Below, one piece after another: positions 33,559-38,934 of a stretch of DNA of 64,000 nucleotides (positions are counted from its first letter, which is position 1; each line of letters opens with the position of its first letter). Origin of the DNA: Bacilli bacterium (lineage in GTDB: Bacteria; Bacillota_I; Bacilli_A; RF39; UBA660); NCBI GenBank assembly GCA_900769635.1, contig CAAGHJ010000014.1, positions 2,584 through 66,583 on the forward strand, read 5' to 3'. The translations under genes and the position numbers were made by a program. The notes beneath the pieces were generated by a model. That model was not told the origin of the DNA and ran no database searches. It was given only the letters and a program-made list of their open reading frames with translations.

Positions 33559-33590
33559 CCACTTGTGGTATCATTAACATAGTAAGATAG
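33559..33590 (+). promoter_or_regulatory. sigma-A-like promoter TTGCAA-17-TGgTATCAT for the tad operon
   Basis: Hexamers with extended -10. The spacer contains a CCACTTGTGG palindrome. Confidence 0.4.
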
Positions 33591-33605
33591 ATAGAAGGTG
33601 CATAT

Positions 33606-33938
33606 ATGAATAATAAAGGACAAGCCCTCGTAGAGTTCATTCTCATACTACCCATATTCCTTTTCCTTATCTTTGCCGTTGTAGACTTTGGCCTCATATT
33701 TAGTACCAAAAGTACTCTTGAAAACACTTCTACCGATATAGTCGATGAAATAAAGGCAGGTATACCCATCGAAGAAGTAAGAGAAAACCATAAAGACCTA
33801 ACCATAGATACCATAGAAGACGCAAAGTACAAAAAAATAAAACTAACTACGGAAAGAAAACTAATAACCCCAGGAGCAAGTAGAGTCTTGCCCAATCCCT
33901 ATAAAATAACAGTCGAAAGGACTATCCTAAATGACTAA
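33606..33938 (+). CDS. TadE-like pseudopilin (Flp pilus assembly)
   Basis: N-terminal KG/QALVEFILILPIFLFLIF class-III-type signal. Confidence 0.6.
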   Translation: MNNKGQALVEFILILPIFLFLIFAVVDFGLIFSTKSTLENTSTDIVDEIKAGIPIEEVRENHKDLTIDTIEDAKYKKIKLTTERKLITPGASRVLPNPYKITVERTILND

Positions 33939-34287
33939 ATTAAATAACAAAGGGCAAGTCCTCGTACTCTTTATAATTCTCCTTCCCATAATAATATTCA
34001 TACTATTTATTGTCGTTGATATCGGTAATACCTATCTAAAAAAACAAGAACTATGTTCCATTACTAGAGATGCCATTACCTATCTAAAAGACGGAAAAGA
34101 AGAAAAACAAGTACTAGATCTAATTAAAGAAAATAACCCCAATATAAAAGCCACTATCCAAGATAATACCATAACATCAACTCTCGAAGTAAAAGGCGTA
34201 ATCAAAATGTATGACCTAAATATCTTTGAAGTAAATTGCAGCTATAAAATAGAAAACAATAAAATAAGGAGGATAACAAATGAATAA
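33931..34287 (+). CDS. TadE/TadF-like pseudopilin
   Basis: KG/QVLVLFIILLPIIIF N-terminus. Overlaps the upstream gene. Confidence 0.55.
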   Translation: MTKLNNKGQVLVLFIILLPIIIFILFIVVDIGNTYLKKQELCSITRDAITYLKDGKEEKQVLDLIKENNPNIKATIQDNTITSTLEVKGVIKMYDLNIFEVNCSYKIENNKIRRITNE

Positions 34288-35056
34288 CGGTAAAATAATA
34301 AGCATTTCTTCAGTAAAAGGAGGAGTAGGGAAAAGCACTATAACAACAATGCTTGCAGGACTATATTTCCAAATGAAGAAAAAAGTCCTTATCATCGATA
34401 TGGATCTATATTCCGGAAGTATAGGAGTACTACTCGATATCCAAAATAAAAAAGATATCTTTATGATGATTGATGCCCTAAGTAATAACCGCTCCCTCGA
34501 ATTAAAAGACTATGTAACACCATATAACAAAGGAATAGATATCTTGCCAGCTCCCAAAGACCCCCGTGGGGCACTAAAAATAGAAAGCAAGTATATACCC
34601 CTCATTCTCGATATAGCTAAAAGACAGTACGATATAGTACTCGTCGATACTAACCATATCTTAGACGCCGTAAACTTAGCCATTCTTGATAACTCCTATA
34701 TGACCCTTTTTGTCATAACTAACGATGTTGCAGATCTAAAAAATATGAAAAGCCTAATGAGTATCTTCAAAGATACAGATAAAGAAAACTATCTAACCCT
34801 TTTAAACAATTCCCGTGATACAGGTAAAGATTACCTAACAAAGTTCGATATCCGTAACATAATAAAAACCAATATCGATTACACAATATCCAAAAACTTC
34901 TATATAAAAAACATCGATAAATACGTACTAAAAGGAGAAATACTAACCCTAAATTCAGCAATAATAAAATTCCATTCCGGTGATATATCCAATATGAAAA
35001 AAATGGCCACAGACCTAATAAGTGATACCCATAAAGGAGGAAAGAAAGATGACTAA
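34280..35056 (+). CDS. TadZ/CpaE-like ParA/MinD-family ATPase
   Basis: Deviant Walker A SVKGGVGKST. Sits in a tad context. Confidence 0.65.
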   Translation: MNNGKIISISSVKGGVGKSTITTMLAGLYFQMKKKVLIIDMDLYSGSIGVLLDIQNKKDIFMMIDALSNNRSLELKDYVTPYNKGIDILPAPKDPRGALKIESKYIPLILDIAKRQYDIVLVDTNHILDAVNLAILDNSYMTLFVITNDVADLKNMKSLMSIFKDTDKENYLTLLNNSRDTGKDYLTKFDIRNIIKTNIDYTISKNFYIKNIDKYVLKGEILTLNSAIIKFHSGDISNMKKMATDLISDTHKGGKKDD

Positions 35057-36374
35057 AAAAACCCTAACAGACGCTTTTGAAGTAAAACAAACTACTGTAG
35101 ATACCAAAAATATAAAAGACTATGACATCTTTCCCGATAAAAGCCTTCTTGATAAATTAAGAACCAAAATAATCCAAAACCTAATCGATGATAACATCCC
35201 CTCTGATAAACAATTAGAACAATACATAAACGATGAAATAGATACCGTCCTAGAAGGCTATGACCTAACATACTTAGAAAGAAGCCATATCTTTAATCTC
35301 ATACAAAACGAAATAAACGGTTACGGTCCCATTACTGACCTCTTAGAAAATGACGAAATAACAGAAATAATGGTTAACGGATGTAATGAAATATATATAG
35401 AAATAGACGGAAAAATAGTCAAAGAAGAATCCGTATCCTTTATAAACGATACCCATATAGTAAGAACCATCCAAAGAATAGTTGAACCCCTAGGAAGAAC
35501 AATCGATGCCGCTAACCCAATGGTTGATGCTAGACTAAGAGATGGATCCCGTCTAAATGCTATCATTCCCCCCTTATCCCTAAAAGGCCCCGTACTTACC
35601 ATAAGAAAGTTCAATAAAAATCTCGAAACAATCGAAGATCTACTTCGCAAAGGAACCCTTACAACCTATATGGCCCGCTTTTTAGAAGCAGCCGTTGAAG
35701 CTAAACTAAACATAATAATAAGCGGAGGAACCGGTACCGGAAAAACCACACTATTAAATATATTAAGTAGTTTTATTGGTAGCGAAGAAAGAATAATCAC
35801 TATCGAAGATGCTGCCGAACTAAAACTCCACCAAAATCACGTTATAAGTCTCGAAACCCGTCTAACTAACTACGAAAAAGAAGGAGAAGTAACCATTAGA
35901 GACCTCGTAAGAAACTCCCTTAGAATGAGACCCGATAGAATAATAGTAGGGGAAGTACGTGGTAAAGAAGCCTTCGATATGATGCAAGCAATGAATACCG
36001 GTCACGAAGGATCCCTTACAACAATCCATTCCAATAACCCCATCGATGCCATAAACAGATTAGAAACCCTAATCCTAATGAACGAAATGGAACTCCCCGT
36101 ATCCGCAGTAAGAGGTTACATCAACGGAGCCATAAACTTAATTGTCCAAATAGATAGAATGAACGATGGAAAAAGAAAAATAACCTCCATATCCGAGGTC
36201 GTAGGAATGAAAAAAGACGAAATAGAACTAAAAGAAATATTCGCTTTCAAACAAAAAGGCGTTGCTTCTGACGGTTCCGCAATAGGTGAATTCATAATGT
36301 ATAAATACACTCCAAAAGTATATGACAAAATGAAACGAAAAGGAATAATTTTGGGTGATATATTCCCAGAATAA
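35049..36374 (+). CDS. CpaF/TadA secretion ATPase (VirB11/GspE superfamily)
   Basis: Walker [10 protein letters not shown], Asp box ITIEDAAEL, His box. Confidence 0.9.
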
Positions 36375-36390
36375 AGAAAGGAGGTAACTT

Positions 36391-37370: not shown

Positions 37371-38069
37371 ATGAAAGAAAATACATTTGCAAAAAAAATA
37401 TATACCAAGAAAATAGTAGATAGAACCAGCAAAAAAATAAAAACCCTCGGACTAACAGCCACAATGGATACCTATACATTTCTCAATCTAAAACTATTCA
37501 CCTCTATCATAATATTCTTTATATTTCTATATATCCTCGATTTAGGCTATATATTTGCTCCCATATTTACCTTTATATACTTCTATCTCTTTGAAAAAAT
37601 CCTCTTAGATAACAAAATAAAACAAAGAGAAATCAAACTAGAAAGTGAAGCTATCCATTTCTTTGAAGTCCTAACCCTATCTATCGAAACCGGAAGAAAT
37701 CTCAAAGAAGGCCTAAGTGTAACCGTTCGCAGTATGGATACCGATTTAGCAAACGAATTCAAAGAAGCCATTCGTGAAGTAGACTATGGCAAAAGCCTCA
37801 CGGAAAGCCTAAACAGTATGCCCGAACGAATACCAAGTGAAAGCATCAATAACATTATATTAACCCTAACCGAAGCCGGTCAATTCGGAAGTAGCATTAT
37901 TGAAACCCTAAATAATCAAGTAAGCTATCTAAGAGAAAAACGCAAAATGGAAGTCAAAGCCCAAATATCTAAAATGCCCATTAAAATAAGCATTATCTCG
38001 GTCCTATTTTTCATCCCATTATTACTTCTAATCATTTTAGGACCCATCATATTAAATTATATAAGTTAA
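37371..38069 (+). CDS. TadC-like platform protein
   Basis: T2SSF-like helices and locus position. Confidence 0.65.
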   Translation: MKENTFAKKIYTKKIVDRTSKKIKTLGLTATMDTYTFLNLKLFTSIIIFFIFLYILDLGYIFAPIFTFIYFYLFEKILLDNKIKQREIKLESEAIHFFEVLTLSIETGRNLKEGLSVTVRSMDTDLANEFKEAIREVDYGKSLTESLNSMPERIPSESINNIILTLTEAGQFGSSIIETLNNQVSYLREKRKMEVKAQISKMPIKISIISVLFFIPLLLLIILGPIILNYIS

Positions 38070-38127
38070 TATAAAATTGCCCTATCGGGGGTAATAATAA
38101 AAATAACATTCTATACAAAATACACAA

Positions 38128-38160
38128 AAACTATTGATTTTTATTTCAATTTTTGATATC
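38128..38160 (+). promoter_or_regulatory. sigma-A-like promoter TTGATT-17-TATCAT
   Basis: Independent promoter for the pilin-like gene, paired with an AGGAGG RBS. Confidence 0.4.
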
Positions 38161-38190
38161 ATTAAATCATAAAGAATAGGAGGATATAAA

Positions 38191-38883
38191 ATGAACAAAG
38201 AAGAAAGAAGAGAAAACGGACAAGGAATATTTTTTGGAGTAATAGGAGTAGCTACTCTAATAATAGCAATGATAGGAGCAACCCTAGCATACTTTACAGC
38301 AACAGCCAAAAGTGAAGAAGGAGCCGTAAGTGCAAAAGCAGCAGCAGTTGCCATTAAATACTCAGATAGCCAAGTAGTAAAAGCCGATTCACTTATCCCT
38401 GCCTCTGAAGACGTAGCAAAAACAGCATATCAATATAATTTAGATGAAAGTGAGGAAACAACTCAGTGCTTAGATAAACATGGCAGACAAGTATGTAGTG
38501 TATACCACTTTGAAGTAGAAAACCAAGGAACAGAAACATCAATTACAGGTAACTTCACTATTGTAAAAAACGAATTCACAAACCTAAAATATATGGTATA
38601 TGATGTAACAGCCGGAACTCCAACCGAAGTAGTAGCAACTTCTCCATTATCAGCTCAAGCATCACAAACAGTATCTATCTTTGGTTTAACAAGTGGAGGA
38701 CAATTAAAACAAGAAACCATACCAGCTTCAACTACTAAAAAATACGATGTAGTTATATATCTATTTAATATGGATTCAGCTCAAGATGAAGAACAAGGAA
38801 AAGAATTCTCAGCAACAGCATCTATCGATGTAGCTGGAATACAAGCTGATAGCAACGGACAAATCTATGGAGAAAAACACTAA
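38191..38883 (+). CDS. Secreted pilin-like protein with a class-III-like (G/Q) or SipW-cognate-like N-terminal signal and weak TasA/camelysin resemblance
   Basis: MNKEERRENGQ/GIFFGVIGVATLIIAMIGATLAYFTA resembles the TadE N-termini and the TLAxF SipW-type motif. FEVENQG resembles TasA FQFENNG. Confidence 0.45.
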   Translation: MNKEERRENGQGIFFGVIGVATLIIAMIGATLAYFTATAKSEEGAVSAKAAAVAIKYSDSQVVKADSLIPASEDVAKTAYQYNLDESEETTQCLDKHGRQVCSVYHFEVENQGTETSITGNFTIVKNEFTNLKYMVYDVTAGTPTEVVATSPLSAQASQTVSIFGLTSGGQLKQETIPASTTKKYDVVIYLFNMDSAQDEEQGKEFSATASIDVAGIQADSNGQIYGEKH

Positions 38884-38908
38884 TAAAAATTAAATATAAC
38901 TAAAAATA

Positions 38909-38934
38909 AAGGTAACTAAACTTACCTTTTTTCT
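38909..38934 (+). terminator. rho-independent terminator
   Basis: AAGGTAA-CTAAAC-TTACCTT followed by TTTTT. Confidence 0.5.

Follow-up and report, generated by a model that had tools for sequence, protein, structure and literature searches.

A reduced Tad pilus operon and a probable TasA-like secreted protein encoded side by side in a gut Bacilli bacterium

Where does a Tad pilus operon without a gene for the small Flp pilin find its subunit, and what is the secreted protein encoded immediately behind it? The question is raised by a stretch of DNA from a Bacilli bacterium (GTDB lineage Bacillota_I, Bacilli_A, RF39, UBA660; assembly GCA_900769635.1, contig CAAGHJ010000014.1, positions 2,584 to 66,583 of the forward strand), which we analysed over its whole length of 64,000 nt, hereafter the window. 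In it, two tadE-like genes, tadZ, cpaF, tadB and tadC are followed by an open reading frame (ORF) for a protein of 230 amino acids (aa), at 38191-38883 on the + strand, which is the first gene 3' of tadC. An earlier note, made from the sequence alone, had proposed that this protein is either an unusually large Tad pilus subunit or a TasA-like fibre protein beside the operon. Using related loci fetched from databases (designated by L-numbers), we favour, with a probability of about 0.6, two separate things: a tad operon that builds an Flp pilus or pseudopilus, and a polymer-forming, TasA-like 230-aa protein processed by a SipW-type signal peptidase. That the 230-aa protein is itself a Tad pilin is very unlikely.

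By sequence comparison, the 230-aa protein belongs to a large unnamed family. It matches no Pfam family, and its sole NCBIfam match, of 17.8 bits (cut-off 19), is to TIGR04088, the model for SipW-cognate signals; at E ≤ 0.1 the same model was matched by 14 of 41 family members, the best with E = 5e-4. All 78 close homologues are nameless and none has a Pfam domain, while the profile of close homologues gathered 2,104 clusters at 50% identity (E ≤ 1e-3). Across the family alignment the N-terminus, IFYGV-AVATLIVAIIGATLAYFS, is nearly invariant and a pair of cysteines (Cys93-Cys102) is conserved. The SipW-cognate-like TLAxF(S/T) signal that the earlier note had recognised is real, and its TLAYF(S/T) form hardly varies across the family. 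The G/Q context and the FEVENQG segment that the same note had stressed are indeed present in the window copy, but are restricted to its closest relatives: G10/Q11 is not conserved, most of 41 homologues reading K[GS]R[DE]IFYG, often with no small residue at -1, and in the window copy itself G10 is followed by QGIFFGV, with no Glu at +5.

Conservation is far from even along the protein: it reaches 0.77-0.92 in the hydrophobic helix and GATxAYF motif but 0.40-0.49 in the core. A bona fide TasA-family alignment (all members PF12389, many of them named TasA, CalY or spore coat-associated protein N; 46-member profile) has the same conservation profile, at 0.83-0.99 for helix and motif against 0.48 for the core. 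A conserved helix is therefore no pointer to a pilin and is expected of SipW substrates. The GATLAYF motif stands where the hydrophobic helix ends on the outer side, rather than at its cytoplasmic start, and register with TasA GGTWA/AFND would place cleavage after GATLA. The near-threshold TIGR04088 match and the conserved helix and motif together point to a predicted SipW-type signal peptide of residues 1-33 (38191-38289, + strand), followed by a mature part (38290-38883, + strand) that we delimited from structure models, fold matches and family alignments.

The genomic company of the family points the same way. We collected 255 family members in 85 loci, where they typically form tandem arrays of two to seven genes, and in nine of these loci an archaeal-type (SipW-type) signal peptidase I gene accompanies the array, directly 3' of the last array gene in five (L019, L034, L046, L052 and L053) and nearby in the other four. 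These peptidases carry the S26B hallmarks [ST]GSMxP, ITHR and KGDxN; they score 95-104 bits on TIGR02228 (cut-off 51.85) and 73-100 bits on the Bacillus SipW model, below its cut-off of 190. An array-adjacent peptidase follows the logic of tapA-sipW-tasA, and is the strongest support for SipW-type processing.

A second, distant family member of 189 aa is encoded in the window at 9249-9818 (+ strand), not beside tad genes and 28 kb from the 230-aa gene. It was recognised by family hidden Markov models (HMMs) at E = 7.5e-23 and 2.5e-31 and has a like N-terminal helix and a shared C-terminal motif (QNNEQGKKIQATIEV); in many related loci its orthologue lies directly 3' of the 230-aa orthologue. 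In matching contigs a further protein, of 503-513 aa and weakly related to the family (family HMM E = 4e-6), is encoded some 7 kb ahead of the window (L168:2566-4077), and resembles the family members of about 500 aa that lie 3' of tadC in L106, L109 and L155.

The full-length AF2 model (pLDDT 77) consists of a helix at residues 12-33, a low-confidence stretch at 34-50 and then a beta-sandwich, and a model of residues 50-230 reached pLDDT 85.5 and pTM 0.82. Residues 34-54 are conserved but modelled with low confidence; this would fit a donor strand without proving one. In Foldseek searches of the PDB, both models had the TasA fibre 8aur_A as their top match (E = 2e-3 and 1.4e-3, probability 1.0, TM 0.37 and 0.45), and the archaeal donor-strand filaments 7ueg (AbpA) and 7pnb were among the listed fold matches (probability 0.96-0.97, TM 0.28-0.34), while type IV pilins were absent from the 50 best PDB matches listed for each model. 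Among 109 family representatives, Peptidase_M73 (PF12389) is by far the commonest weak Pfam match (22 representatives, best E = 9.6e-4). Taken together, these comparisons make the 230-aa protein a probable TasA-like protein in signal, architecture and modelled fold.

Tests for pilin features had a different outcome. At E ≤ 0.1 the 230-aa protein matched none of Flp_Fap (PF04964), TadE (PF07811), Tad (PF13400) and Class_IIIsignal (PF04021), whereas the Flp proteins of relatives match both PF04964 and PF04021, and they and the TadE-like neighbours carry the G/xxxxE[YF]-type motif. Of the marks of a type IVc pilin, the 230-aa protein has no conserved class III leader, no Glu5, no match to a pilin family and none to a pilin fold among the matches listed.

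By its domain matches, the locus at 33606-38069 is a Tad (type IVc) pilus operon in reduced form, from a monoderm bacterium, with six tightly packed genes on the same strand (+) in the order tadE-tadE'-tadZ-cpaF-tadB-tadC; Pfam and NCBIfam matches recovered every one of the six genes that the earlier note had named. The first encodes a TadE-like minor pilin of 110 aa (33606-33938) that begins MNNKG/QALVEF and scores 50.2 bits on Pfam TadE (cut-off 22.9). The second, also a TadE-like minor pilin (118 aa, 33931-34287), has an NNKG/QVLVLF leader without Glu5 and falls just under the cut-offs of both Pfam Tad (21.8 bits, cut-off 22.3) and TadE (21.2 bits, cut-off 22.9). The TadZ-like ATPase (258 aa, 34280-35056) is of ParA/MinD type, with matches to AAA_31, ParA and CbiA and a sub-cut-off match to CpaE_hom_Actino (33 bits), and has its ParA/MinD domain but no N-terminal receiver-like domain. 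The CpaF/TadA secretion ATPase (35022-36374; T2SSE 206 bits; TIGR03819 311 bits against an equivalog cut-off of 373) and the platform proteins TadB (36391-37368; T2SSF 37.8 bits) and TadC (37371-38069; T2SSF 64.7 bits) make up the rest of the operon, which combines the ATPase and both platform proteins with TadE/TadF-type pseudopilins, the second of these recognised by its NKG/Q leader and sub-cut-off score. A promoter-like site precedes the operon (33546-33574, + strand; TTGCAA-17-TATCAT with TG before the -10), its 9/12 consensus match being not above chance. We found 80 metagenome loci via CpaF (L086 is 100% identical, most are at 70-80% and eight distant ones at about 50%), and those that are long enough keep the order tadE-tadE-tadZ-cpaF-tadB-tadC; the first tadE-like gene is conserved in all full-length loci, and the second is conserved across the related loci.

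No Flp-like ORF of at least 20 aa is present in 32900-39000, and over the whole window a six-frame scan for G/xxxxE[YF] and a tblastn search with real Flp proteins of relatives returned only the first TadE-like protein. The sole A24 peptidase in the window is a PilD-type prepilin peptidase at 61185-61952 (+ strand; A24_N_bact 101.7 bits, Peptidase_A24 49 bits), about 23 kb from the tad operon; it has no paralogue in the window, where neither a second A24 peptidase nor N-termini of type IVa pilins were found. ORF scan, motif scan, tblastn and peptidase search therefore agree with the earlier note that the locus and its immediate surroundings hold no small Flp ORF and no A24 peptidase. Nor was tadV found in any of the 80 related tad loci. 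The PilD at 61185 is the likely candidate for processing the TadE-like proteins and Flp.

The pilD gene forms an isolated pilC-pilD pair (58502-61952) directly 3' of an IS200/IS605-type tnpB, and pilB, pilT, pilM-O and a type IVa pilin gene are all absent from the window; a gene annotated PilM_2 that adjoins ftsZ about 4 kb beyond the window end is probably ftsA. The stored gene calls of one related locus lack pilD and give two short reverse-strand ORFs in its place (L166:8197-8964), but the pilD frame is intact there (phmmer E = 7.5e-163) and the omission is thus a gene-calling artefact.

Relatives of the operon do carry a genuine Flp of 70-79 aa, either 5' of tadE or elsewhere in the genome. 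In L104, L105, L106 and L155, an ORF of 71-79 aa with a textbook Flp leader (M-LN-KG/QTLVEYVLIISL) lies immediately 5' of tadE, while in L049, L078 and L171-L176, loci that span about 5-10 kb on each side of flp, the gene occurs without any other tad gene (L049:5365-5595, L078:5537-5767, L171:10001-10222 and L174:10001-10213). Such an unlinked flp is followed by the gene of a pilin-like protein of 148-151 aa, whose N-terminus in L049 and L078 is a degenerate K/[QN]LVVEI. A database search with Flp returned 1,032 homologues, many with PF04964 or PF04021; identity to the query is 83-96% among the best 120 matches listed, and one variant is recorded from 333 contigs. Judged from these loci, flp is commonly unlinked from the tad operon in the clade of the window organism. 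A tad locus without flp and tadV is normal for this clade, so that no substitute pilin is needed, and by analogy with relatives the flp of the window genome probably lies at a distant site.

The six loci L171-L176, which were fetched for two abundant Flp variants, have flp directly 3' of the gamma-like gene of an unusual F-type ATPase cluster, as do L049 and L078. Non-canonical clusters of this type adjoin 230-aa family arrays at about 30 of the 85 family loci (for example L002:1181-8547, L004:3524-9931, L078:20-5402 and L171:4473-9826, all outside the window). Their genes encode, in order, a c subunit, b-like, alpha-like and beta-like proteins, a protein of 83-98 aa, a membrane protein of 177 aa, a gamma-like protein and often a protein of 570-680 aa; neither an a nor a delta subunit was seen. 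For the alpha and beta proteins, scores stay below the atpA and atpD cut-offs and are comparable on the mycoplasma F1-like models MMOB1660 and MSC_0618/0619; F1-like X0 ATPases have been described as mycoplasma-specific (PMC3369863, PMC12994834). Giant proteins of about 1,800-1,940 aa with faint fn3 matches (L004:10841-16240, L171:1-1959) are followed by proteins of about 450-545 aa and of 245 aa that have no Pfam domain, and this trio recurs by the ATPase cluster and the family arrays.

We therefore propose the following course of events, which would involve two independent routes. The Tad operon would build an Flp pilus or pseudopilus from a pilin encoded elsewhere, with its TadE-like proteins processed by PilD. 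The long hydrophobic helix of the 230-aa protein would target it to the membrane for export by Sec, and a SipW-type (archaeal/ER-type) signal peptidase I, likewise encoded elsewhere, would cut after GATLA. Outside the cell the mature protein may then polymerise, or join its paralogues, by inserting its N-terminal segment into a neighbour (donor-strand exchange), and the product may be a matrix, surface or spore-surface fibre. Donor-strand exchange is used by TasA, BsaA and archaeal AbpA.

A number of results weigh against this interpretation. The 230-aa protein has no match to PF12389 at E ≤ 0.1, and HHalign comparison of two family alignments with the TasA-family profile gave E-values of 0.034 and 0.023 with probabilities of 1.5-2%; only the signal together with the first strand aligned, where GATLAYF paired with GGTWAAF and LIPa with LKPGD, as expected. 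HHalign against a single TasA sequence was not significant, and hmmsearch of the family profile against PDB chains gave no usable match. With TM values under 0.5 the fold match is weak, and numerous unrelated beta-sandwiches come close to it in score. Since the PF12389 and profile tests failed, we do not file the protein in PF12389. The suggestion of a TasA-like fibre protein beside the tad locus is supported in kind, by the near-threshold TIGR04088 match, the sipW linkage elsewhere, 8aur_A and the weak M73 matches, but membership by sequence is not established; the recommended fold and profile comparisons with TasA and pilins yielded a weak TasA fold match, no pilin among the fold matches listed and no significant TasA profile match.

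The same holds for the genomic surroundings. A motif scan and phmmer searches with SipW-type proteins from other loci found no S26/SipW-type peptidase in the window, and 10 kb past each window end, in contigs that carry the window proteins exactly, contained no flp, tadV or sipW; this leaves about 84 kb around the 230-aa gene without sipW, as the earlier note had surmised for its vicinity, and sipW is equally absent from the 80 related tad loci. Viewed from the family side, tad genes lie within 10 kb in just one of 77 genome loci, that of the near-identical genome L009, and the idea that tad adjacency is universal for the family was rejected on this count. The nearest orthologues, L008 and L010 (47-55% identity), keep the pair of M23 and M50 peptidase genes that lies 3' of the window gene, and have no tad genes nearby. 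Finally, polymerisation and the cleavage site are themselves deduced, as is, from relatives, the location of flp elsewhere in the window's own genome.

Seen from the tad side, the two systems meet repeatedly. A regular expression for the family's signal motif, which matched 202 of the 255 ORFs of the family and none of the 1,012 ORFs outside it, placed at least one family-type protein on the tadC strand within 4 kb 3' of that gene in 27 of 37 loci, and 5' of tadE in none of 36. We then grouped loci whose CpaF proteins are at least 95% identical into lineages (25 groups, of which 20 could be assessed; L109 and L155, with altered motifs, were rescued by eye), and found family genes 3' of tadC in 13 of the 20 species-level lineages, on which the notion of the adjacency as a one-off was rejected. 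They follow tadC directly in the window, L106, L109 and L155, and in most other loci a yebC gene lies between tadC and the array, with spacers of roughly 75-220 bp. This yebC/PmpR-family gene (239 aa; L088-L152, for example L112:11135-11854) has short same-strand spacers and is absent from the window. By phmmer (E = 4e-5 to 1e-6), the arrayed proteins 3' of tadC are genuinely, if distantly, related to those of the window.

Adjacency is not obligatory: it is missing from seven of the 20 lineages, and L047 and L052 have orthologous arrays away from tad. As all loci belong to one clade, inherited gene order may explain much of it. The earlier hunch that the adjacency matters has thus found some support, in a placement that recurs 3' of tadC and never 5' of tadE, and this support is one of synteny alone. 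The pattern suggests a shared role of tad and the family in surface or adhesion biology; as far as gene order goes, pilus-assisted export of family proteins is possibly part of it.

The most far-reaching alternative takes the gene order literally. On this account an Flp-less Tad machine with two TadE-like pseudopilins would act as a type II secretion-like piston that moves SipW-processed TasA-like proteins across the thick wall. The one-sided, same-strand placement in 13 of 20 lineages argues for it, as do the occurrence of at least three arrangements, directly after tadC or via yebC, and the lack of flp in most such operons. There is also a precedent in Clostridium perfringens, where type IV pilus genes are reported to be needed for efficient secretion of the proteins of the sipW-bsaA-bsaB-bsaC operon (preprint, PMC11580942). 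However, that result concerns type IVa pili and is inconclusive for BsaA itself, and the evidence here is syntenic and from one clade of gut Bacilli, in which shared ancestry could explain much. The seven lineages without the arrangement, the arrays of L047 and L052 and the nearest orthologues in L008 and L010, all away from tad, speak against a link, and so do the tad operons of L106 and L155, which contain flp as well as a family gene, so that the Flp-less state is not tied to the association. We consider the link between machine and substrate unlikely. Quite unlikely, too, is its generalised form, that the Tad operon (often flp-less, with two TadE-like genes) is a dedicated export or assembly helper of the SipW-type family of TasA-like fibre proteins in this clade, a Gram-positive Tad-based analogue of type II secretion and maybe part of a wider surface network with the F-type ATPase cluster.

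The expression signals of the 230-aa gene also count against a link between machine and substrate. Between it and tadC there is a G+C-rich hairpin (38076-38095, + strand), which has no U-tract on the + strand and is therefore not a clear terminator, and then a promoter-like site (38134-38162, + strand; TTGATT-17-TATCAT with TG before the -10). The AGGAGG ribosome-binding site that the earlier note had reported is present at 38178-38183 (+ strand), 7 nt 5' of the ATG. A terminator-like 8-bp hairpin with a U-tract follows the gene (38908-38944, + strand; -6.4 kcal/mol) and is weak, with z = -1.0. From the promoter-like site and the flanking hairpins, the 230-aa gene looks like a transcription unit of its own. 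The consensus-like promoter claimed earlier does exist as a site with a TG-extended -10, but matches the consensus at 9 of 12 positions and does not exceed expectation: promoter-like sites are no commoner in the window than in shuffled sequence (20 found, 23.4 expected), and neither hairpin folds better than shuffles (z of about -1). In this A+T-rich DNA no expression signal of the gene rises above chance, and strong expression is accordingly unproven.

Alternatively, the adjacency may be inherited order without any functional link, and the 230-aa protein a spore-surface or coat component made in sporulation. The host DNA is low in G+C (about 32%) and belongs to the chromosome of a spore-forming Firmicute, with cotJB/cotJC and a sporulation-type sigma factor gene in the window and spoVS, cotZ and spoVA in flanking contigs. 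The 230-aa gene lies directly 5' of the M23/M50 pair, which resembles spoIVFA/spoIVFB and is followed by rplU-ysxB-rpmA, and in L008 the orthologue stands between cotE on its 5' side and the same pair on its 3' side. TasA (CotN) is partly spore-associated, and TasA-family proteins are annotated as 'spore coat-associated protein N'. Yet no sporulation-sigma promoter was identified, the sole promoter-like site being sigma-70-like, most family members lie away from sporulation genes, and the repeated one-sided placement 3' of tadC, in several arrangements, is unlike chance alone. For these reasons we think a coat component without any tie to tad rather improbable.

There is little chance, in our estimation, that the N-terminal helix stays uncleaved and makes the product a type II membrane-anchored surface protein whose helix mediates membrane interactions. 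In its favour are a long hydrophobic stretch (about 23 residues) whose conservation exceeds that of the fold, the lack of a nearby sipW and a report of membrane-anchored BsaA oligomers (PMC11580942), but the TasA family combines the same conservation with a cleaved signal, the motif of the window protein approaches the SipW-cognate model, and SipW-type genes accompany arrays in nine loci. Last, an oversized Tad major subunit, cut by PilD at G10/Q11 and assembled by CpaF, TadB and TadC via its retained helix, may be set aside as very improbable and is already largely refuted by the family comparison: the NG/QG before a 23-residue hydrophobic helix does recall the KG/Q of the TadE-like pair, the helix is highly conserved, as in pilins, and the gene directly follows tadC in a locus without flp, but the G/Q is unconserved, Glu5 and any match to a pilin family, class III signal or, among the fold matches listed, a pilin are missing, the invariant motif lies at the outer helix end, where SipW cleaves and would remove the helix, a predicted disordered linker and beta-sandwich follow it, SipW-type peptidase genes accompany the family elsewhere, and relatives of the operon have a canonical Flp.

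Separate systems therefore remain our preferred interpretation, in which the 230-aa protein is a known kind of secreted fibre protein in a divergent form, encoded beside an ordinary but reduced Tad operon. With TasA/CalY (PF12389; tapA-sipW-tasA in Bacillus subtilis) it shares a G-x-T-x-A-(Y/A)-F motif that ends a conserved hydrophobic helix, a conserved mature N-terminal segment followed by a beta-sandwich, its best PDB fold match and, in the family, tandem paralogues with a SipW-type gene beside the arrays in some genomes. It differs in that its folded domain has no significant sequence similarity, in an extra helix and the Cys93/Cys102 pair, in its shorter length of 230 aa, and in that neither sipW nor tapA adjoins its gene. 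The archaeal AbpA (7UEG) and the Sulfolobus 'thread' (7PNB) are chaperone-free donor-strand filaments with a TasA-like fold; they are archaeal, match weakly and have no sequence similarity to the 230-aa protein.

The BsaA/TasA family is described as very divergent in sequence, often with several paralogues per operon (PMC11580942), and the C. perfringens Bsa proteins are similar in being very divergent TasA-like proteins with SipW-type signals from multi-paralogue operons, and in the reported link of a type IV filament machine to matrix-protein export in a monoderm. There, however, mutants showed the link, and the machine is a type IVa system with its genes elsewhere, whereas here the system is Tad (type IVc) and the link is gene order only; the present locus moreover has neither a vWA protein (BsaC) nor a sortase. 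The operon shares its G/xxxxEF TadE-like protein, ParA-type TadZ, CpaF/TadA, TadB and TadC with the monoderm Flp/Tad systems of Bifidobacterium and Bulleidia extructa (PMC12786226) and, as expected of a monoderm, has no secretin. While tadV and two pilin genes open the Bulleidia operon (PMC12786226), the window operon has neither flp nor tadV, its TadZ has no N-terminal receiver-like domain, and the flp of many of its relatives lies beside the unusual F-type ATPase cluster.

Other genes of the window were also inspected. Just 3' of rpmA, two adjoining genes (41388-43753, + strand) encode secreted proteins of 418 and 365 aa with near-identical membrane-anchored N-terminal parts of about 110 residues and differing C-terminal domains. 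A second, unrelated adhesin or pilus system is encoded at 15230-17147 (+ strand), where the gene of a surface protein that combines a thioester domain (TED) with a SpaA-type domain precedes one for a sortase. The gene at 31002-32297 was considered as RmuC and rejected, as Pfam gives DUF2130.

If our interpretation is correct, at least about 2,000 unannotated protein clusters from uncultured Bacilli of human and animal guts would represent extracellular fibre subunits of the TasA/BsaA-like type, and organisms that have never been grown would have one of their major surface or matrix components named. The repeated placement of the family 3' of the Tad operon would offer independent comparative support for the tentative idea that type IV machines help to export TasA-like proteins through the Gram-positive wall, and this conserved, one-sided gene order provides a concrete gene pair with which the idea of a machine and its substrate may be tested.

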